A stretch of 17,445 nucleotides of DNA from Candidatus Heimdallarchaeota archaeon (GCA_016840095.1 JAEOSZ010000085.1:1-17445), one strand, 5' to 3'; shown: positions 7,628-17,445, numbered from the stretch's first letter. The notes: a model not told the origin generated them from the letters alone. A program made the numbers and translations.

Positions 7628-8584
7628 TTGCTCAAAGCCCAAAATATTTGTAAAACTTTCCAAACAAATAAAATCAAAGCACTTCAAGATTTCTCCTTAG
7701 AAATAGAAAAGGGAGAAATTATGGGGCTTCTGGGACCTAATGGGGCAGGAAAAACAACTTTTGTAAAAATTGCAGTAGGGGTATTGGCCAAAGATTCAGG
7801 TTCAATTTCAATTTTTGGCTATGATGGTGATAAGGACAGAAAAAAGATTTCAGAAAATATTGCATGGATTCCCCAAGAAGGAGTTCAGAAAATGCTTTAT
7901 CAAAAAACAGGTAGAGAGAACATTATCTATTATTCATGGATTAGAGGTCTTACACGAAAAGAAACAAATCTTAGAATAGATAAAATAATGGATCAAATGC
8001 TTATTAATAAAAAAGTAATAGATAAACCTTATAGGCTTATGAGTGGAGGTCAAAAACAATATGTCAATATCATGAATGGGTTGGTAATGAATGCAGATTT
8101 AATTTTTTGTGATGAAATTTCTGTGAGTATTGATCCTATAATTTCTAAAAATATCTATCTTTATCTTAAGGAAATTGTAGAAGAAGGCAAAACCGTTTTA
8201 CTAACCTCACAGAACATAGACGAGGTTGAAGATTTGTCTAATAGAGTTGCTTTAATTAACGAAGGCAAAATTATGACTGTTGACACTCCTAGAAAGATAT
8301 CTAGAAATATTCTCAAATATGAGATTATAGATTTGATTTTTGAAAGAAATGTAAGTGAAATACCCAAAATGAGTGAGTTTTGTAATGAACTTGAGACTCA
8401 CAAATTATTTCTTTCTGGTATTCAAGATAACAACAAACTAAGGGTTCAATGTAAAACTGCAAAAATCTTCTTAGCAGATATCTTACAGTTATTAGATAAA
8501 TACTCATTAAACCCAGCCATAGAAGCTGGAAAGGCCAACTTAAAAATGGCTGTTCAATTAATTAAGGAGGAGAATGAAGCTTGA
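7628..8584 (+). CDS. ABC-2/DrrA-like exporter ATP-binding subunit
   Basis: Walker A GPNGAGKTT, Q-loop WIPQE, signature MSGGQKQ, Walker B LIFCDE, switch LLTSQNIDE. TTG start with GAGGT RBS at 7617-7621. Confidence 0.93.
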   Translation: MLKAQNICKTFQTNKIKALQDFSLEIEKGEIMGLLGPNGAGKTTFVKIAVGVLAKDSGSISIFGYDGDKDRKKISENIAWIPQEGVQKMLYQKTGRENIIYYSWIRGLTRKETNLRIDKIMDQMLINKKVIDKPYRLMSGGQKQYVNIMNGLVMNADLIFCDEISVSIDPIISKNIYLYLKEIVEEGKTVLLTSQNIDEVEDLSNRVALINEGKIMTVDTPRKISRNILKYEIIDLIFERNVSEIPKMSEFCNELETHKLFLSGIQDNNKLRVQCKTAKIFLADILQLLDKYSLNPAIEAGKANLKMAVQLIKEENEA

Positions 8585-9420
8585 AAACTTTTTATGCTAA
8601 TTTTTGGAGAGAGGTAAGATATAATATTGGAAGAAAAGGTGTCTGGATTGGAAGAATTGCTAATGTATCTGTTTCTATTCTTACAGCTTTTGCGATGGGA
8701 GTAATTTATGCTTTTAGCTCAGATGCTCAAAATAATTTAGGCATTGGAAATGTAGGTTTGTTTTTATTAACAGGTTTTTTTATGCAGTATTTAGTTCTGA
8801 CTAGTGTAACTGTAGCACCCAACACATTTTGGGCTGATATTAGATACGGTTCATTAGAATTTGTGTTTTTCTGTGATTTCAGTATAACAGAATATATCTT
8901 TGGCATGTATTCTGCTCAATTTCTTTTTGATTTCATAATTTCAATACCTTTCTTCATCGTACTTGCAGTTCTAGCAGCTGTGCAATCAATTGCACCTATT
9001 GTGATTCTAATTTTCATGGCGTTTGTAATTCTATCATTCTTATGCCTATTCTCAGTATCAATGCTATTTTCATCATTATATGCTTTAAGCAAGCAATTCA
9101 TGGGGTATAGTAGAGTTCTATTCTCAATTGTATACTTCATATGTGGTGTATATTTCCCAGTCCAAGGATATCTTACACTTTTTAACGAAACTGGAGGGTG
9201 GATAGCTATTGCAATAGTTTCTATTTTTCCCTATACATATGTATTCGATTTAGCACGTAAAATTGTATTCGGAGCATCCTATGAGACGATATATCCATTA
9301 TGGTTAGAATTTTTGCTATTATTTGTCACATGTGCTATCCTCTATTTACTTTCACTTTGGATTTTTAGGAAAGGTTTAGCTAAACTAAAAAAGGAAGGAT
9401 TTGCGGGATACAGATATTAG
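8581..9420 (+). CDS. ABC-2 type exporter permease
   Basis: About 6 TM helices. Motifs DIRYGSLE, ICGVYFPV and FPYTYVFDLAR are typical of ABC-2 permeases. TTGA overlap with the ATPase stop; AAGGAGGA RBS upstream. Confidence 0.88.
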   Translation: MKTFYANFWREVRYNIGRKGVWIGRIANVSVSILTAFAMGVIYAFSSDAQNNLGIGNVGLFLLTGFFMQYLVLTSVTVAPNTFWADIRYGSLEFVFFCDFSITEYIFGMYSAQFLFDFIISIPFFIVLAVLAAVQSIAPIVILIFMAFVILSFLCLFSVSMLFSSLYALSKQFMGYSRVLFSIVYFICGVYFPVQGYLTLFNETGGWIAIAIVSIFPYTYVFDLARKIVFGASYETIYPLWLEFLLLFVTCAILYLLSLWIFRKGLAKLKKEGFAGYRY

Positions 9421-9493
9421 AAAAGGCAAGACAAGAATTAAATAATGAAAGGAAAACATTGGTACTAATACAAATATAATGAAGGGAGAAAAA

Positions 9494-10591
9494 ATGGATA
9501 AAGTAATTAATCAGGAAAAAAAAGAAAAGTTTCCTTATAAATTCGAATCCAAAGTTACTAAACAAGGTATAATTACTATTCCACATTCTATTACTCTAAA
9601 AGAAGGAAACTTCTACATCTTCGAATTTCATATAAAGAAGACACAGATGCATTATACTCAGATAAAGAAGATAAGAGGTACTGGCAATCGCAAATATATC
9701 TCATGTAGAATAAAGATGCCTTATCTGGAGAGAGAAGATGAAGTTACTGTAATTATTCTAAAAGAGTTTCAAGAGACAACAGAAAAATTCCTAAGAATAA
9801 ATGATTTTGAATATCCACTGCTTTCTAATGATACAAACAGATGCATGTTTCTATATAAGAATAGATCTAACAACATCATACTTACATCAGAAGAAGAAAC
9901 ACAATTTAAGGTAGAAAATCCAGATTTTGAAAGCACTGATTGGGTTATGGACATTTTTAAGCATCTAGATAATGTAGAGGATAAAGGGGAGGAGTTCTTT
10001 GACATTTTACGATTAAATCAATATTCAGTTATTCGATACTTTGGTAAGAAAAGAGAATTAAGTATTACAGAATTAACTGAAAATCCCACTGAAGATGCAA
10101 GGAAAGCTTATCAAACATTTCTCCCTTATTGTTTTTGCATACTAACAAAAATAAATCATTTGCAATTTCTACTCTCTCATCACATTAGAACGAGAATTAA
10201 GTTATTTCTGTCAAAATTTCAAAGTATATCTTCATATAAATCATTCATAATTAAAGAATTTTCAACCTATCTTCAAAGTGATATTTTCGAAAGGATTAAT
10301 GTCTCAGATCATACCTATACGAAAACAAATAGCTTAGATGATATTCGTTTCTGGTTCTATATTCCTTCTGAATATCAAGAGGTTGCTAAGAAAATACAAC
10401 TAGAATTCTTCTCTGGAAAAAAATACATTGAAATTGATAAGCTGATTGATTCTATAGTTTCAAAATCTGAAGATTTAGAAATAACAACGAGTATCTCAAA
10501 AGAAGCTATTGAATGGTTTAACAAACATCGTGTCTTGCAAGTTAAAACAAAAGATAAAAAGAAAGTACTGGAGAGATTTGGAATTGAATAA
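9494..10591 (+). CDS. Hypothetical protein with N-terminal AbrB/SpoVT/MazE-like swapped-hairpin motif(s), possible regulator
   Basis: SKVTKQGIITIP...LKEG matches the AbrB-type pattern, and IKKIRGTGNRKYISCRIKMPYLEREDEVTVII may be a second copy. Start ATG 9494 is preferred over 9479 because GGGAG lies at 9484-9488. Confidence 0.55.
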   Translation: MDKVINQEKKEKFPYKFESKVTKQGIITIPHSITLKEGNFYIFEFHIKKTQMHYTQIKKIRGTGNRKYISCRIKMPYLEREDEVTVIILKEFQETTEKFLRINDFEYPLLSNDTNRCMFLYKNRSNNIILTSEEETQFKVENPDFESTDWVMDIFKHLDNVEDKGEEFFDILRLNQYSVIRYFGKKRELSITELTENPTEDARKAYQTFLPYCFCILTKINHLQFLLSHHIRTRIKLFLSKFQSISSYKSFIIKEFSTYLQSDIFERINVSDHTYTKTNSLDDIRFWFYIPSEYQEVAKKIQLEFFSGKKYIEIDKLIDSIVSKSEDLEITTSISKEAIEWFNKHRVLQVKTKDKKKVLERFGIE

Positions 10592-11384
10592 GAAAGAACC
10601 GAAATCAAATGTTATCAGTTTCTACTCCTATAGAGGAGGGACTGGAAAGTCTACTTTATCATCTAATATAGTTAAAATTGCTTCTTTGAAACACAAAGCG
10701 ATACTTATTGATTTAGATCTTTACTCTCCTCAACTCAGCTATATCTTTGAAAAAGAAAATGAGCACTATATCAATGACTATTTTCATACTATGCTTTTTC
10801 AACCTGATAGTGGTTCAAAAAGAAAAATAGATTTATCAGATATAATTTGTAAAAGCAATTTTAAAAACCTGGATTTGATTTTGGCGAATCCTATCATTTC
10901 ATTATCTGATAAAACAATTTTACATGATGAAATCATCTCTAAAAGAATTTTCCCATGTATCCAACATATGGTAGAGATTTTACGAGCAGATTATGACTTG
11001 ATATTGATTGATTGTCCTGGAGAACTTAATTTCTATACTCTTAATGCAATAGCTGTTTCAGATCGAGCAGTAGGGGTATCTTTACCAACAAGAGCAAACA
11101 TTAAAGGTATGATAGAACTAATGAAAATTTTCAATGTTGCTCTACATGGAAAAATCTCTGATATTATACTTACTATGATTTCTACTAGGCCATCTCAAAG
11201 AAAAATTGAAACTTTAGAAAAATGGAAAATTGAGTTGAAAGATCACAATATATCTGATTTTATTTTCTTTTACTATTCAGAAAATATTGCTTATAGACAT
11301 CAATTTGAAGACGATTTCTTCTATCTTCCAGAGGAGGAAGAGTATAAACAACTTGAAGAATATCTACAAAAAATAACAGAGTAA
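10584..11384 (+). CDS. MinD/ParA-family P-loop ATPase
   Basis: VISFYSYRGGTGKST (deviant Walker A), ILIDLDLYSP, YDLILIDCPG. Probable start is TTG 10584, which overlaps the upstream TAA (TTGAATAA) and has GGAG at 10570-10573, rather than 10509. Confidence 0.85.
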   Translation: MNKKEPKSNVISFYSYRGGTGKSTLSSNIVKIASLKHKAILIDLDLYSPQLSYIFEKENEHYINDYFHTMLFQPDSGSKRKIDLSDIICKSNFKNLDLILANPIISLSDKTILHDEIISKRIFPCIQHMVEILRADYDLILIDCPGELNFYTLNAIAVSDRAVGVSLPTRANIKGMIELMKIFNVALHGKISDIILTMISTRPSQRKIETLEKWKIELKDHNISDFIFFYYSENIAYRHQFEDDFFYLPEEEEYKQLEEYLQKITE

Positions 11385-11394
11385 GTGAAATCTT

Positions 11395-12738
11395 GTGTCA
11401 GTGAAAATATTACTTTCATTGAAAAAAGCAAATGGATTATGGATATATTATAATCTATTGACTCAAACATTAGTTGAAACTTCTGTCTCTCCTGAGTTAA
11501 TTCATGATCAAGCACCAAGTAATATCCATAAAGATCTTTTCTTTGGGGAGAATATACAAGATCTTCTAGATTTCAATAACAACTTCTACAAGAAAACATT
11601 AGATGTTTTAGAAGAAGAAAAGGATTTAACTCAGTATTTCAACCAAAAATCACAAGTTATAATTGTTCTTTGGTACAGCTGCAATTTTGATTGCTCATAT
11701 TGTTTTCAGAAATACACATATTATGATTTCAAACCTGAAAAAGACATAATAGATGTTCAAAAGCTTAAACAATTTTTTACTACAAAATCAGATGGAGGAA
11801 AGCTCTCTCCTGATTCAGTTGTTCTTCTTGGAGGAGAACCACTTCTTAAGGGTAAGAAGTATAAAACTATTATCGAAGAAATTCTAGATTACTTATCTAG
11901 TGAATTTAAAGACCTAGAAATAAGTATTGTGACTAATGGTTATAATCTGAATTATTATATCCCTACATTCTTGAAATATAAAAACATAGATTGGATTTTC
12001 AATATAACTTTAGGAATTGATGAAAAACATCACAGTGAAGAACGAATTCTGAAAGCAGATAGAAGTGCAAACACAAGAAAAAGAATTTTAGAAAATATAG
12101 AAAAAATTTCAATTAATCTTCCAAAAAGCACAGTGTATATTAAACTAAATCTTGGAAAAGATTTCATAGAAGTAAAAAATGTAATCAATTTGATCAAGGG
12201 ATTGAAAAATAATGAGATAATAAGCAAGTTTGAAATAAGTCCTATCGAATCTCCAGAATATCATCAAGAGATAAATAACTCATTTATTGAATTGTCAAAA
12301 TCATTACTTCTTGAAGAATCTATAAGAAATAAGATTGACTTAAGGTATTCTCAGCATATCTTCAATATCATAAGAAAAGCGTTTATAGATAAAAGCGAAA
12401 CTGAAATTGAAGTACTACCCAAATGGTGTAATGCGATAGTATTTTCAACTAATTACGATTTATCTCCTCCATTCCAAATTCAACCTTGTGAGGATTTCCG
12501 TTATTATGAAATTGATGATAATCTGAGATTAAAAATAGAGTCTTCATTTCTAGAGAAATTCAATCAAAGAATTACCAATGTATGTGTTAATTGTCCTTTT
12601 CTAACATCTTGCTTGTCAAATCCTTGTAATATTGTAAAAAGAATTAATCAACCTCTTGAGAAATGCTATGGTCTTGAACGAAGTAATATTATAACAGCTT
12701 TATCTACAGTTCATGGAGCAAACCATGCAAAAAGTTAA
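11395..12738 (+). CDS. Radical SAM enzyme with C-terminal SPASM domain, putative peptide maturase
   Basis: CNFDCSYC (CxxxCxxC, 11680-11703), LLGGEPLL, IVTNG. C-terminal 7-Cys pattern C-x19-C...C-x2-C-x5-C-x4-C-x12-C (12427-12666). GTG start at 11395 or 11401. Confidence 0.9.
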   Translation: MSVKILLSLKKANGLWIYYNLLTQTLVETSVSPELIHDQAPSNIHKDLFFGENIQDLLDFNNNFYKKTLDVLEEEKDLTQYFNQKSQVIIVLWYSCNFDCSYCFQKYTYYDFKPEKDIIDVQKLKQFFTTKSDGGKLSPDSVVLLGGEPLLKGKKYKTIIEEILDYLSSEFKDLEISIVTNGYNLNYYIPTFLKYKNIDWIFNITLGIDEKHHSEERILKADRSANTRKRILENIEKISINLPKSTVYIKLNLGKDFIEVKNVINLIKGLKNNEIISKFEISPIESPEYHQEINNSFIELSKSLLLEESIRNKIDLRYSQHIFNIIRKAFIDKSETEIEVLPKWCNAIVFSTNYDLSPPFQIQPCEDFRYYEIDDNLRLKIESSFLEKFNQRITNVCVNCPFLTSCLSNPCNIVKRINQPLEKCYGLERSNIITALSTVHGANHAKS

Positions 12739-12743
12739 GTATG

Positions 12744-12764
12744 AACATAACTAGTTCTTATGTT
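12744..12764. repeat. Inverted repeat AACATAA-n7-TTATGTT (possible hairpin or operator)
   Basis: Perfect 7-bp arms directly after the radical SAM stop. AT-rich, so it could be chance. Confidence 0.3.
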
Positions 12765-12874
12765 TAAAAAATAAATATCCAAATCTTGAGTACTTTCACA
12801 ACTAGGAGGTTCACAAAATTATATACTCTTTCATTTACGGAATAAAGAATCACCCACTCAAACAAACAATTCTA

Positions 12875-14500
12875 ATGGAATCACATTTGTTTAGTGTTTA
12901 CACTGTGACTGACGAGGAATTAATTTCTGCAACTCAAAATTGGATAGCTTTAAGTGAAGAAATATCTTTGAATGACGAAGAAATTTTTACTCTTAAGTCA
13001 ATAAATAAAAGTTTGAAGACATTTCTTATTGATGATGACATCTCACAATTTGAGAGTACAGCACAAGAAGCACACCTAACAGGCTATCATAAATCAACAA
13101 TAGATATACTTCTATTCAAAGGAATTTTAGTTAATTCATTAGCTTTTTCAGGTACAACTAGGATATTTAAAATAGAAAATACAAGAGCTGTAGTTAACAA
13201 ACTCGAGGAAATTGAGACAAAGGACAATATCTATTACGAGTTACTTAAAGCATTGCTCTTATTCTATGAAGGACAAGAAAAAGAATCAATTCCTATTTTC
13301 CAAAAACTAAGGACACAACTTGATATGAATGATTGTTCTCCTTTAATAGTAGTTTATTATCTTCTGATAGGTATGTATCACAGAAATCCTAGTAAACAAA
13401 TAGTGATTCTTGAAGAGGGATTAAAGGGAAATTGTTTTTATTGGGAATTTGTTGTGAAGTATCTGGTTCATTTCTTTCATCGTGGTAAATATATTAAGAC
13501 TCAAGAACTTGCATTGGATTATTTAGAGGAAATGGAGAAAGATTTGGATGATTACATGAAGGGAATAAAATTGAGTATTCTTGATCAACTTATCAAATCT
13601 GCATTTCGATTAAATTTAAAATGTGATCTACAATTTTATTTGAGTGAGTATACTCAAACATTGGATAGTTTACCCTATGATGAATATGGAAATAAATACA
13701 ATTACCAGTTATTCAATAAGACAAATGAAATCCTCTTTAAAATCCATTTTAGTGAGAAAAAATTAACAGAAGAAGAGATTGAGAATTTCCTAAAATTTGG
13801 AGAAAATAGTTTCTTCAACATGCTTATGGCAACAGTAATATTAAATCCTATCATTAACAGTATGGTTCTAGAAAAAGAGTATGATAGAGCTTTTTACTAT
13901 ATTCAACAATTAGATAATGGTAAAGGGTACTCTAAATCTTCAGATAAGCTTATTTCATTCCTAGAGAGTTTTTACATCTCCGCTTTAATTGATAGAACTT
14001 TAAGATGGCAAAAATATAATATTCTGGAATATAATGGGTCACAAACAGAAATTGCTCTTAAATATCTAAAAGACTCCCAGATTCTACTTGATAAAGGGGA
14101 TGAATCTCTGAAAGTTTCAGCTCTTCTTCATGAAGTCAATTTAAGATTGAGAGCAGATTCAATCGACCAGCTTGAAGAAAGTTACATACTTGAGACTTTG
14201 AAGAGAGAAGGTTATGACTATGTACTTGCCTTAATGATTGCTTTAGTTTATTATATTAGTACTTACAATAAAGAACGGTATTATGAGATTAAATATGAGC
14301 TATTTACTAAATTGGAAGAATTTTCCGGATATAATTTTTACGAACAATTTAAACTTCAAGTGAATTCTTTATGCTCATATTTTGAAGTTAATTTATCAAT
14401 TGAAGTTGAATCAAAGAGAACTGTATTAGATTTTGATCTTATTCAAGATTATACTCAGTTTCTACAACATGAGATAAATAAAGTTTTAACAAGTAGCTAA
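12875..14500 (+). CDS. Hypothetical protein, probably alpha-helical repeat (TPR-like)
   Basis: 541-aa ORF rich in Leu/Tyr/Glu, with TPR-like segments (LLKALLLFYEGQEKESIPIFQK, FHRGKYIKTQELALDYL, LEKEYDRAFYYIQQL). No catalytic motif recognised. Confidence 0.6.
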   Translation: MESHLFSVYTVTDEELISATQNWIALSEEISLNDEEIFTLKSINKSLKTFLIDDDISQFESTAQEAHLTGYHKSTIDILLFKGILVNSLAFSGTTRIFKIENTRAVVNKLEEIETKDNIYYELLKALLLFYEGQEKESIPIFQKLRTQLDMNDCSPLIVVYYLLIGMYHRNPSKQIVILEEGLKGNCFYWEFVVKYLVHFFHRGKYIKTQELALDYLEEMEKDLDDYMKGIKLSILDQLIKSAFRLNLKCDLQFYLSEYTQTLDSLPYDEYGNKYNYQLFNKTNEILFKIHFSEKKLTEEEIENFLKFGENSFFNMLMATVILNPIINSMVLEKEYDRAFYYIQQLDNGKGYSKSSDKLISFLESFYISALIDRTLRWQKYNILEYNGSQTEIALKYLKDSQILLDKGDESLKVSALLHEVNLRLRADSIDQLEESYILETLKREGYDYVLALMIALVYYISTYNKERYYEIKYELFTKLEEFSGYNFYEQFKLQVNSLCSYFEVNLSIEVESKRTVLDFDLIQDYTQFLQHEINKVLTSS

Positions 14501-14539
14501 TTTTATTCAATCTTTAAACTGTTAGAAAAACTTTCGTTT

Positions 14540-14569
14540 TCTACAAAAGTATAAAAACTAGAAAGAACA
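14540..14569 (+). promoter_or_regulatory. BRE-TATA-like promoter of precursor gene 1 (repeat copy 1)
   Basis: TCTACAAAAGTATAAAAACTAGAAAGAACA, 26/30 identical to 14859-14888. Confidence 0.6.
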
Positions 14570-14593
14570 TAGTACCTACAAGAGGACATGCTT

Positions 14594-14797
14594 ATGAGAA
14601 AAGAAGAGAAAATCTCACTTGATCAAACTTCATTCAAGATTATTGCAAAAACCAATATAGACTGGGGAAATAATGTAGGTATAAATGAAGAACTTCCTCC
14701 AGATGATGATAATTATTATCCAACTTGCACTACTGCAGTAATGCGAGTTTCTGCTAGATCTGCTTCATGTAGTGTAATAACGTTAGGAAGAGGGTAG
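14594..14797 (+). CDS. Putative RiPP precursor peptide A1 (67 aa)
   Basis: MRKEEKISLDQTSFKIIAKTNIDWGNNVGINEELPPDDDNYYPTCTTAVMRVSARSASCSVITLGRG. The second ATG (14594) sits 7 nt after GAGGA and aligns without gaps to the start of the paralog. Downstream of the rSAM/SPASM and ABC exporter genes. Confidence 0.8.
   Translation: MRKEEKISLDQTSFKIIAKTNIDWGNNVGINEELPPDDDNYYPTCTTAVMRVSARSASCSVITLGRG
14630..14669 (+). repeat. 40-nt perfect direct repeat, copy 1 (encodes SFKIIAKTNIDWG)
   Basis: TCATTCAAGATTATTGCAAAAACCAATATAGACTGGGGAA is identical to 14947-14986 (offset 317). Confidence 0.95.
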
Positions 14798-14858
14798 GAC
14801 AACTGATTTTCCTTTTGGTTATGCTTGGTTCTTTAACTTTCTGAAATGACATACTTTG

Positions 14859-14888
14859 TCTGCAAAAGTATATAAATTAGAAAAAACA
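14859..14888 (+). promoter_or_regulatory. BRE-TATA-like promoter of precursor gene 2 (repeat copy 2)
   Basis: TCTGCAAAAGTATATAAATTAGAAAAAACA, a purine-rich element followed by TATATAAA. Confidence 0.6.
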
Positions 14889-14910
14889 AATGTATAAAAG
14901 TGGTTAAACA

Positions 14911-15108
14911 ATGGCTAAAAAAGAGAACATCACTCAAGACCAAATATCATTCAAGATTATTGCAAAAACCAATATAGACTGGGGAATCAATTCAAGTATA
15001 AATGCTGTCGAACCTACAATACCTGATCCCCCTGAATTCAACTGTACTACATCAGTAAATCGAATATCTTCAAGATCTGGTACATGTAGCGTATTATCGT
15101 TAGGATAG
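14911..15108 (+). CDS. Putative RiPP precursor peptide A2 (65 aa)
   Basis: MAKKENITQDQISFKIIAKTNIDWGINSSINAVEPTIPDPPEFNCTTSVNRISSRSGTCSVLSLG. Gapless alignment with A1 gives 37/65 identical residues (manual count). Confidence 0.8.
   Translation: MAKKENITQDQISFKIIAKTNIDWGINSSINAVEPTIPDPPEFNCTTSVNRISSRSGTCSVLSLG
14947..14986 (+). repeat. 40-nt perfect direct repeat, copy 2
   Basis: Identical to 14630-14669. Confidence 0.95.
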
Positions 15109-15520: not shown

Positions 15521-17445
15521 ATGGAAAAATCGAAAAAATTAACCTTATTTGCTACAATGTTCATTACAGTTTTTTTAGTGACTAATGTTGCACATGTAAT
15601 GAGTTTTAGTTTTGATCCTGGACCAGGAGATCCTCCACCAGATGATCCTCCACCACCACCTCCTCAAGATACAACTAAACCAACAGTTTCTATCACAAGT
15701 CCGTCAATAGGAGATGACTTAACAGGAGTAGTCACGTTTCAAGCTTCGGCGAGTGACAATGTTGCCATTCTTGTTGTAACCTTTAGTATTAATGGACAAT
15801 CTTTAGGTTCTGACTCTTCATCACCATACAAAGTGACTTTTGATACAATAAATTATCGAGAAGGATTCTATACTCTAGAAGCTACTGCAATTGATACTAG
15901 TTATAACTCTAGAAAGCATTCAATAAATGTTCAAATAACTAGGGCTAAAGGATTAACTATTTGGGAAGACAACTTCGAATATGTTGGAGATCAAGCTGAA
16001 GGTTACGATCATATGTGGACAATGAAATATAATGATTGGTATGGTAACGATTATCATGAAACCTATAGCGATGGATACAAAGGATATGTTAGTGAAACTA
16101 ATGGTCATGTTTCAACAAATGCGCTAGTATATACTAAATTTGACATGAGTAAATGGACAGGAGAAGGTGATGTTACACTTGAAGTAAAATTCCGAGCACA
16201 AAGCAATTACAATGGACCTTCCAGTGTAACCAATTTCCGTATAGGCATTAGAAGATGGGGAGAAACAACACCTCTCTGGCAACAAACGAAAATGTTTACT
16301 TATTCTAAAGATTCTGGATGGCAAATCTATTCTTACCTAATTACTGGTCAAGAATTGCTTAACTATGGAGGAAAATATTGCTTATACTGGGGCTACAGAG
16401 ATGCTTGGTCAAGTTATTGGGGTCAAAAAGTATCTATTGACTATATTCAAATATTTGGTGATGCGTTCCCAGGTGATACTTTACAGCGTAAAAATGGAGC
16501 AACTTTTTCTAATGGTGTTCATGATATTTTTATCTTTCATCAGCAAGCTGATGACGATAACCCTGATTCAGATCATGTTTTTGTTAGTACTGCTACAAAA
16601 ATAGATGGAGCGGATTCTCTGGGAATATGCAATACGCAAAGTCCTCACATTGAAGCAGGAATACAAGTTGCTATGGATCCACATGAAGAAGATAGTAGTT
16701 TAAGGTTTAACCGAATTGATGGAATTAGGATAAAGATTGCATTGAAGAATATGAAAGATAATACCTATGTAGAACTAAATACTTATCAAAAAGAGACTTG
16801 GTTAAACGAAGAAGCTACCATAACTGGTGGTACTGATGTAGATTATGATGCTACCTGGGGAACGCTTTCAGCTGTAGGTGAAACTATGTGTGCAGCTGGA
16901 GGATTAATTGCACTTGCTTTAGGTCCTGAAACAGTAGGAGCAGCTGCAGTATTAGGTTTGGCATTAGCAGCAATCGGAGGAGTCCTATGTATGGTTTCAG
17001 CAATTGGATCTGCCATCACAGACTCTGTTTTAGAAAGTGATCAAACAATAATATCTATGTACACTGAATCTGAACAGATTAGTCCTGAAATAACTAAACA
17101 TTATGCTGTGTCAGATTTGGATTATAAAGCTGTTTGTGCTGGGACTACTGATTTGAGATACCTGTTTGGCATCACACCTTATCTACCAGATGATTCATGG
17201 TATAGAGTAGAAGTAACATATGAGCTTAGACTGAAATCTTGCAGATATTTAAGACACACTCAACACCTCTGGGAACCTGAACCTTATACAGAATACTTTG
17301 ATTTATTCAATATGGATAATATCAGAATAGTTGATACAGGTTCTGAAAATATAGAAGAAGATGTACCTGTAACTTTCAGTGATGGAAATTACTTGAGTTA
17401 TCCAACTATAAATGGAGAAGGATGGTATGCTGTTGAAGTAGAATA
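15521..17445 (+). CDS. Large secreted protein (partial, >641 aa): signal peptide, Pro/Asp linker, bacterial Ig-like (Big) domain, beta-sandwich domain, internal hydrophobic hairpin
   Basis: AGGTGA RBS at 15511-15516. Manual translation is open to the window end: MEKSKKLTLFATMFITVFLVTNVAHVMS-FSFDPGPGDPPPDDPPPPPPQ-DTTKPTVSITSP...ASASDNVAI..VTFSINGQSLGSDSSSPYKVTFDT...YTLEATAIDTSYN (Ig-like Big domain, 15668-15940), then WEDNFE...SGWQ...VSIDYIQI. Confidence 0.85.
   Translation, partial: MEKSKKLTLFATMFITVFLVTNVAHVMSFSFDPGPGDPPPDDPPPPPPQDTTKPTVSITSPSIGDDLTGVVTFQASASDNVAILVVTFSINGQSLGSDSSSPYKVTFDTINYREGFYTLEATAIDTSYNSRKHSINVQITRAKGLTIWEDNFEYVGDQAEGYDHMWTMKYNDWYGNDYHETYSDGYKGYVSETNGHVSTNALVYTKFDMSKWTGEGDVTLEVKFRAQSNYNGPSSVTNFRIGIRRWGETTPLWQQTKMFTYSKDSGWQIYSYLITGQELLNYGGKYCLYWGYRDAWSSYWGQKVSIDYIQIFGDAFPGDTLQRKNGATFSNGVHDIFIFHQQADDDNPDSDHVFVSTATKIDGADSLGICNTQSPHIEAGIQVAMDPHEEDSSLRFNRIDGIRIKIALKNMKDNTYVELNTYQKETWLNEEATITGGTDVDYDATWGTLSAVGETMCAAGGLIALALGPETVGAAAVLGLALAAIGGVLCMVSAIGSAITDSVLESDQTIISMYTESEQISPEITKHYAVSDLDYKAVCAGTTDLRYLFGITPYLPDDSWYRVEVTYELRLKSCRYLRHTQHLWEPEPYTEYFDLFNMDNIRIVDTGSENIEEDVPVTFSDGNYLSYPTINGEGWYAVEVE
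15614..15664 (+). repeat. Low-complexity Pro/Asp-coding repeat (DPGPGDPPPDDPPPPPP)
   Basis: GATCCTCCACCA occurs twice, followed by a CCA/CCT run. Confidence 0.8.

Follow-up and report, generated by a model that had tools for sequence, protein, structure and literature searches.

What two closely similar small genes encode at the end of a run of eight co-oriented genes in a heimdallarchaeal genome is the question raised by the locus described here. The window, a 17,445-bp stretch (GCA_016840095.1 JAEOSZ010000085.1) that is a whole contig (G000:C76) of a Candidatus Heimdallarchaeota genome of 3.44 Mb and 89% completeness, carries this run from 7628 to 15108. Its last two genes, pepA and pepB, encode the twin peptides that the original prediction took for precursors of a ribosomally synthesised and post-translationally modified peptide (RiPP). 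The peptides themselves are genuine and conserved, occur strictly alongside a radical S-adenosylmethionine (SAM) enzyme module, and share a defined set of conserved residues and spacings. Because the peptide family always adjoins one radical SAM enzyme, its members are most likely precursors of a probably cysteine-crosslinked product. We consider it likely that pepA and pepB are genuine radical SAM-modified precursors built on a leader, linker and Cys core logic, and, provided that they are, thioether chemistry is in turn likely, on the evidence of the sequences.

The twin peptides align with 37/65 identities and zero gaps (BLASTP, E 7e-24), both are present as called genes in a public protein collection, and the opposite strand contains no open reading frame (ORF) of at least 40 aa at either gene. 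A recount reproduced exactly the gapless three-block architecture proposed for the pair, with 19/25 identical residues in positions 1-25, 5/19 in positions 26-44 and 13/21 in positions 45-65, and SFKIIAKTNIDWG is indeed invariant between the two. The differences are clustered beyond chance, as 11/13 residues differ in codons 32-44 against 17/52 elsewhere (Fisher p = 0.0012), and nucleotide identity in these codons is 36%, essentially unalignable, compared with 80% in the remainder. In the flanks of this segment nonsynonymous divergence (dN 0.19) is lower than synonymous divergence (dS 0.37), which indicates purifying selection. Codons 32-44 could have diverged through replacement of a cassette or scrambling by indels, through gene conversion that homogenised the flanks, or under diversifying selection, and the data do not separate these processes. 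A 40-nt run of perfect identity within the twins (14630-14669 and 14947-14986) needs no special constraint, since 12/12 codons are identical in this run and 19/23 elsewhere at identical residues (p = 0.17). Chance ORFs or non-coding DNA are ruled out by conservation, synteny and the purifying selection on the pair flanks.

A single-sequence word search with the peptide returned only the query. Six-frame searches of related genomes gave weak peptide matches in two of them (G005 and G007), each directly after a radical SAM orthologue of 39% identity, and a third orthologue of the enzyme was found in G020. A profile of five peptides matched eight of 1.84 billion representative proteins at E <= 1e-3, comprising seven peptides of 61-73 aa (two being the query's own rows) and one 382-aa repeat protein; a search of 5.8e9 proteins revealed no additional family members, leaving about nine distinct ones. 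The repeat protein (P0017, metagenomic, E 1.3e-4, matching in four stretches) was judged spurious. It consists of five repeats of ~77 aa, in which R-D-G-T-C-T-V-I-S recalls the R-S-G-T-C-S-V-L-S of pepB, probably by chance. Weak tblastn matches of pepB in G006, G008, G018, G024 and others (E 0.007-0.75) proved to be out-of-frame or unrelated ORFs, and a features search of the ESM Atlas with the peptides returned unnamed clusters only, at 0.85, which is under the useful range. The peptides match no known small-protein family in Pfam or NCBIfam.

The proposed tie between precursor-like peptides and a radical SAM enzyme is borne out throughout the family, in that every homologue with readable surroundings adjoins an orthologue of the enzyme. 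The peptide lies beside the radical SAM enzyme or the tetratricopeptide repeat (TPR) protein of the module at nine loci (L024, L025, L026, L028, L029, L030, L031/L032 and the contig of P0018), and peptide-profile matches are confined to the genomes that carry the enzyme (G000, G005, G007 and G020). P0015 sits between the C-terminus of the radical SAM enzyme and the N-terminus of the TPR protein, and P0016 and P0019 are located 3' of the enzyme on two JGI contigs. P0020 is an uncalled 57-aa ORF in the gap between the two genes in a lineage whose radical SAM enzyme is 30% identical (L030:5983-6156). P0018 (63 aa, 44% identical to pepB) comes from another metagenome (contig ERZ23498365), where it follows a cut 163-aa gene and is itself followed by a second ORF of 62 aa, making it a candidate second twin arrangement. 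The shared module consists of two ABC transporter genes, a 370-aa protein, a ParA-like ATPase, the radical SAM enzyme, the peptide and the TPR protein; five to seven of these genes are kept down to 30% identity of the radical SAM enzyme, the ABC-2 transporter being present in most loci.

A profile of nine members detected the peptide in 4/25 species genomes of the genus to which the window belongs, one of the four being the genome of the window itself, and in none of 375 other Asgard genomes; as the searched genomes are incomplete, the latter result means not found rather than absent. Given so few members, in four genomes of one genus and none of the other Asgard genomes, the family is tiny, patchy and lineage-restricted. 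The named carriers are all Candidatus Heimdallarchaeota metagenome-assembled genomes, and the sequencing runs that hold DNA of the locus are marine sediment metagenomes. Contig pieces fitting the locus, compared across four DNA runs, contain zero differing letters and all derive from three runs of a single study, which probably represent the source samples.

Within the family the N-terminus is rich in Lys, Arg, Glu and Asp and is followed by a hydrophobic, β-strand-like motif, [FLI]-x-[IV]-[ILV]-[AILVM] at residue 13-15, and then by G-x4-I-[NQE], together forming the putative leader. The linker that separates I-[NQE] from the first Cys (Cys1) is 12-13 residues long in 7/7 canonical members and only ~29% identical, with a composition dominated by Pro (19%), Asp (16%) and Gly (10%), and an Asp lies 5-6 residues ahead of Cys1 in 8/9 distinct members. 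The peptides carry two or three Cys. The C-x13-C frame singled out by the original prediction is borne out, and nothing else is as well conserved across the family: 7/9 distinct members have the exact spacing together with a Ser at Cys2-6 and an Arg at Cys2-4, and the tail after this core is 5-8 residues long. Conservation at the family level is thus one of anchors and spacings. The idea of a ruler-like constraint is upheld in part, strictly for the C-x13-C spacing and also for the 12-13 residues between I-[NQE] and Cys1, and lost for the interval that separates the hydrophobic leader motif from Cys1, which ranges from 27 to 33 and for which a fixed value is ruled out.

The radical SAM enzyme matches the Pfam families Radical_SAM (E 2.7e-11) and Fer4_12, and the three Cys of its CxxxCxxC motif (C96, C100 and C103) are invariant across seven orthologues, as are seven further Cys downstream (345, 365, 397, 400, 406, 411 and 424). 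All seven orthologues match peptide-maturase models, which places the enzyme, by sequence, in the peptide-maturase type. The highest-scoring NCBIfam models are the Cys-targeting CefB (66.1 bits, cut-off 600), PapB (63.6 bits, cut-off 340) and TIGR04463 (60 bits, cut-off 525), followed among others by the ryptide (53 bits) and SCIFF (33.5 bits, cut-off 425) maturases; the match to the StsB sactipeptide model is weak (E 3.4e-6). By profile the closest solved structure is the thioether-forming CteB (5wgg, E 5.7e-11), the sole solved relative with E < 1e-10. Cys-bearing peptides are the substrates of both the nearest curated families and the nearest solved structure, in keeping with a Cys core. 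The ~90 residues N-terminal to the cluster motif gave no Pfam match when RiPP recognition element (RRE) and PqqD-like domains were sought. A scan of metagenomes with the radical SAM profile yielded one locus (L037), which was set aside because it encodes a different, canonical SPASM enzyme with a thioredoxin-reductase-like neighbour and no related peptide.

The same comparisons bear on whether such an enzyme might modify the peptides by other means, forming C-C or C-N crosslinks (a cyclophane, or Arg- or Trp-linked), epimerising residues or carrying out another radical reaction, with the Cys pair serving as cluster ligands for positioning or as a disulfide. With comparable scores, again below threshold, all seven orthologues also match cyclophane (YhhB, FxsB), ryptide, WgkB and dynobactin maturase models, the Arg at Cys2-4 is fixed, and the window pair and P0018 have a Trp in a W-x-x-N context. 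It was this Trp, called invariant, that had been put forward as a possible crosslink site (W-G-x-N). Invariance holds only within the pair; across the family Trp24 (the NIDW/NINW position) is kept just in pepA, pepB and P0018, and neither Trp nor any other aromatic residue is conserved at any position of the family alignment, the core included. Since only the sub-lineage of the window retains the Trp, a Trp crosslink is unlikely as the family chemistry. The two Cys are moreover the best conserved residues, and Cys-directed enzymes account for both the top models and the single solved relative at E < 1e-10, so that we regard non-thioether chemistry as unlikely.

A second alternative retains the peptides as precursors and reverses their parts, so that the variable Pro/Asp-rich middle (residues 32-44) would be the product core and the Cys-bearing C-terminus a removed follower or recognition sequence, in a cyanobactin-like manner. 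In RiPPs the hypervariable part is often the core. Within the window pair, strong divergence is limited to the middle, and both residue differences between the near-identical peptides of L028 and L029 fall in this segment. Across orthologues, in contrast, mean identity is 0.33 in the leader, 0.29 in the linker, 0.38 in the core and 0.17 in the tail, so that the conserved-variable-conserved architecture mainly characterises pepA and pepB as recent twins, and in the family the middle is no more variable than the leader. The middle contains one fixed Asp, whereas the two Cys, the Ser, the Arg and the exact x13 spacing are all C-terminal, and no cyanobactin-type protease or macrocyclase is encoded in the module (Pfam, NCBIfam). 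This reversed arrangement, which had been offered alongside that of a leader, a spacer and a Cys core, is therefore rather improbable, and the latter is the better supported of the two, given that Cys1, Cys2, their spacing, the Ser and the Arg are fixed in 7/9 members.

A third possibility is that the peptides are small proteins that partner a ParA/TPR/winged-helix system, with a regulatory or toxin-like role or as binders of metal or Fe-S clusters, and that the radical SAM enzyme acts elsewhere. The module would suit this, in that conservation of its three non-enzymatic proteins is as strict as that of the enzyme, one of the three has a winged helix and a longin-like domain, and a peptidase is missing. 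It is nevertheless very improbable in view of the standard RiPP arrangement, in which a peptide with a leader-like N-terminus and a Cys core follows a maturase-like radical SAM enzyme and an ABC-2 exporter accompanies them, and of a complex prediction that gave a weak pass against clean controls. In that prediction, run on alignments built for this analysis, the enzyme and pepB reached an ipSAE of 0.55 (0.50-0.65 in three runs) with the best control at 0.00. The mark applied is reached by 58/80 solved complexes and 2/110 mismatches, and scores <=0.60 count as weak passes. The runs had at least 39% of contacts in common and a partner pLDDT of ~41, and no interface is reported from them; the models thus lend weak support to the pairing.

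For radical SAM-modified precursors with a Cys core, the following sequence of events can be envisaged. A tandem duplication would have given rise to pepA and pepB, in a pathway so far seen only in one genus-level group of Heimdallarchaeia. The adjacent radical SAM enzyme would bind the leader and use 5'-deoxyadenosyl radical chemistry, with SPASM-like auxiliary clusters helping to join the two Cys thiols to acceptor carbons in sacti- or ranthionine-type thioethers, for which the fixed Ser, the fixed Arg or the upstream Asp could serve as acceptors. The core would be followed by a short hydrophobic tail that ends the peptide. The leader would then be removed by an enzyme encoded elsewhere, and the ABC-2 transporter may export the product or protect against it. 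The TPR protein, the ParA-like ATPase and the protein with barrel, longin and winged-helix domains would be obligatory partners, acting as scaffold, chaperone or in regulation.

Several observations weigh against this scheme. No curated precursor family was matched by the peptides in Pfam or NCBIfam, not even when the E-value limit was relaxed to 5-10. The C-x13-C spacing is broken in two members, P0005 having one Cys and P0020 a C-x11-C spacing. The radical SAM enzyme scores far under all curated NCBIfam cut-offs and, taken with its matches to cyclophane, ryptide and dynobactin maturases, this means that homology does not fix the chemistry. Its C-terminus has no match to Pfam SPASM and scores 14-20 bits with the TIGR04085 SPASM model (cut-off 27), the spacing of its Cys (C-x19-C, CxxCx5Cx4C) being atypical. 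No leader peptidase is encoded in the module, and the three conserved non-enzymatic partners, atypical of RiPP clusters, could point to other biology; to our knowledge, a partner set of ParA-like ATPase, TPR protein and longin/winged-helix protein is not part of described RiPP pathways.

A bolder view of the same partners is that the locus represents a new, Asgard-specific RiPP class, in which C-x13-C would define a fixed 15-residue loop, with its invariant Ser and Arg and the Asp upstream of it, that carries an undescribed crosslink topology, and the partners would form a dedicated apparatus for peptide handling or sensing, for example with the TPR protein as receptor for the exported peptide. 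We think this unlikely; if true, it would mean that the archaea most closely related to eukaryotes use peptides as signals.

Table 1. Genes and other elements at the pepA/pepB locus (window coordinates).
Feature	Position	Strand	Evidence and remarks
DrrA-like ABC ATPase	7628-8584	+	Pfam, NCBIfam
ABC-2 permease	8581-9420	+	Pfam, NCBIfam
370-aa three-domain protein	9479-10591	+	AF2 model, pLDDT 73; conserved in all loci
ParA/MinD-like P-loop ATPase	10584-11384	+	Pfam AAA_31, CbiA, ParA
Radical SAM enzyme	11395-12738	+	CxxxCxxC, divergent SPASM-like C-terminus; presumed maturase
541-aa all-helical TPR-like solenoid protein	12875-14500	+	AF2 model, pLDDT 82
pepA upstream block	14540-14569	+	TATA-like A/T-rich element AAAGTATAAAAA, ~42 nt 5' of ATG
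pepA	14594-14797	+	67 aa, extra C-terminal RG; translation, paralogue of pepB, family-profile match
pepA, putative parts			Leader ~residues 1-31, Pro/Asp linker 32-44, C-x13-C core 45-59, tail 60-67; leader, linker and core at the same residues in pepB
pepB upstream block	14859-14888	+	AAAGTATATAAA; TATA-like A/T element, ~42 nt 5' of ATG
pepB	14911-15108	+	65 aa, twin of pepA; translation, profile matches
Secreted Big_7 (Ig-like) protein	15521-17443	+	Pfam Big_7; runs off contig

The elements of the locus are listed in Table 1. The blocks upstream of pepA and pepB are identical at 26/30 nt, and their core 21-mer occurs at only these two sites in the window, with 0.01 matches expected by chance. 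A GAGG site resembling a Shine-Dalgarno sequence is located at 14582-14585, 5' of pepA, and AGGTGAT stands 4-6 nt ahead of the ATG in the orthologous peptide genes, so that overall one or other of these sites is found 4-8 nt ahead of the peptide start codons. These sequences suggest that each of the two genes has its own promoter and that ribosomes bind at the Shine-Dalgarno-like sites. A scan of the whole window against Rfam gave no match.

The ABC transporter, presumably an exporter or immunity pump judging from its families, is syntenic in L024, L025, L026, L028 and L029. The 370-aa protein consists, by VIA-align comparison of its model, of a PHS018-like β-barrel (residues 16-101; 2glw, Z 10.5), a longin/roadblock-like domain (residues 115-276, Z ~8) and a C-terminal winged helix (residues 280-370, Z ~9), while Foldseek found nothing for it at E <= 1e-3; neither this nor the 541-aa protein matches a curated family. 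Its gene overlaps the start of the gene for the ParA/MinD-like ATPase, which has the Walker A motif RGGTGKS. Since orthologues of the ATPase are 268 aa long, its start is probably the TTG at 10584, and in alignments the orthologues set in at residue ~27-32 of the long ORF. The two genes are kept as a pair in every locus, including the 30%-identity lineage, and a longin/roadblock domain beside a P-loop NTPase recalls, by analogy, regulator-NTPase pairs. The best Foldseek matches of the 541-aa protein are TPR proteins (subunits of the APC/C, IFIT5; E ~2e-4), and it has orthologues in L024, L025, L028, L029 and L030.

Gene order differs between the window and its relatives, which have the radical SAM enzyme, one peptide and the TPR protein in that order (L024:7560-10853, L025:8403-11683), whereas in the window (12875-15108) the TPR protein follows the enzyme and the two peptides come last. 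The rearranged twin layout of the window and of the P0018 contig may mark a sub-lineage. L027 (G007:C20:1-2916) holds a second, divergent copy of the module, with the 370-aa protein, the ParA-like ATPase and a radical SAM enzyme of 34% identity, cut at the contig end; L030 represents a similar divergent lineage, in which the called genes immediately upstream include none recognised as ABC genes. Unlike the window, L024 and L029 have genes for an α/β-hydrolase (273 aa) and for a protein of 182 aa immediately ahead of the ABC genes (L024:2079-2900, L029:2360-3181), and this pair is a candidate source of a leader peptidase in those two loci.

Downstream of the twin genes, the Big_7 protein has a Pro-rich N-terminal stretch, PGPGDPPPDDPPPPPPQD, and a homologue with 36% identity occupies the same position in L025. 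A 716-aa fn3/CarboxypepD_reg protein follows the twin small ORFs of the P0018 contig. The Big_7 protein may belong to the locus. GC content is 0.28-0.30 across 10001-15000 of the window and 0.31-0.35 in the left part of the contig, which, with carriage by four of the 25 genus genomes, fits an accessory and possibly transferred island.

Predicted radical SAM RiPP clusters have been described across Asgard archaea, without products (PMC12144867). The searched literature contains no characterised Asgard archaeal RiPP and no description of the present cluster. The locus is a compact and tractable case, in which nature supplies two variants of the substrate for a single enzyme and the conserved residues stand out clearly. 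If its chemistry or the functions of its partners are new, it would extend RiPP enzymology and the chemical ecology of the lineage nearest to eukaryotes; if its product is a plain thioether peptide, it adds one further family of a known kind.

Among known systems, SCIFF/thermocellin and its maturase CteB (5wgg/5why) share with the window a short precursor, in which a leader precedes a C-terminal Cys core, beside a radical SAM enzyme; the window enzyme has enough conserved Cys for auxiliary clusters, and CteB is its best solved relative. In contrast, the score with the SCIFF maturase model (TIGR03974) is 33.5 against 425 bits and there is no match to the precursor model (TIGR03973) up to E 5; SCIFF has six clustered Cys where the present peptides have two spaced by x13, and the hosts here are archaeal and supply ParA-like, TPR and three-domain partners. 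PapB, the freyrasin maturase, is the second-best NCBIfam match and alone among these matches extends over the SPASM region (residues 87-415), and the present peptides share with the PapB system Asp-rich surroundings and a conserved Asp near Cys1. However, the score of 63.6 falls well below 340 bits, and the Cx3D pattern of the PapB β-thioethers occurs in only one distinct member (P0003, the G005 orthologue, with its near-identical variant P0013), the conserved Asp lying 5-6 residues upstream of Cys1 rather than 4 downstream. The CefA/CefB and TIGR04463 systems provide the top-scoring maturase models for all seven orthologues, yet these scores are also far from the cut-offs (66 against 600 and 60 against 525 bits) and the peptides lack the Cys-every-fifth repeat.

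Two-precursor sactipeptides such as thuricin CD likewise have paralogous precursors beside a radical SAM enzyme and an ABC transporter, and by analogy with them Cys donors and a hairpin-like core are conceivable here; unlike thuricin CD, the window has one radical SAM enzyme rather than two, most of its relatives have a single peptide, and StsB is matched only at E 3.4e-6. The triceptide and aromatic cyclophane RiPPs differ in having an aromatic-x-x site, of which there is no conserved equivalent, Trp24 being confined to pepA, pepB and P0018. Within archaea, one report describes CrpC of Methanococcus voltae, the first archaeal ranthionine-installing enzyme and reported in 2026, as a SPASM radical SAM enzyme that forms ranthionine crosslinks in a Cys-rich substrate encoded next to it; CrpC is said there to contain a predicted RRE and to engage this substrate via N-terminal protein domains (PMC13692751). 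By that description, CrpA/CrpC resembles the window in placing an archaeal radical SAM enzyme beside a Cys-bearing substrate, and is set apart in that CrpA is a Cys-rich protein and not a short peptide (PMC13692751). Judged by its sequences, then, the locus appears to work in the manner of the sacti- and ranthipeptide pathways of CteB/SCIFF, PapB/freyrasin and CefB, while its scores lie below their cut-offs and its Cys pattern and near-absence of Cx3D set it outside each of these families.

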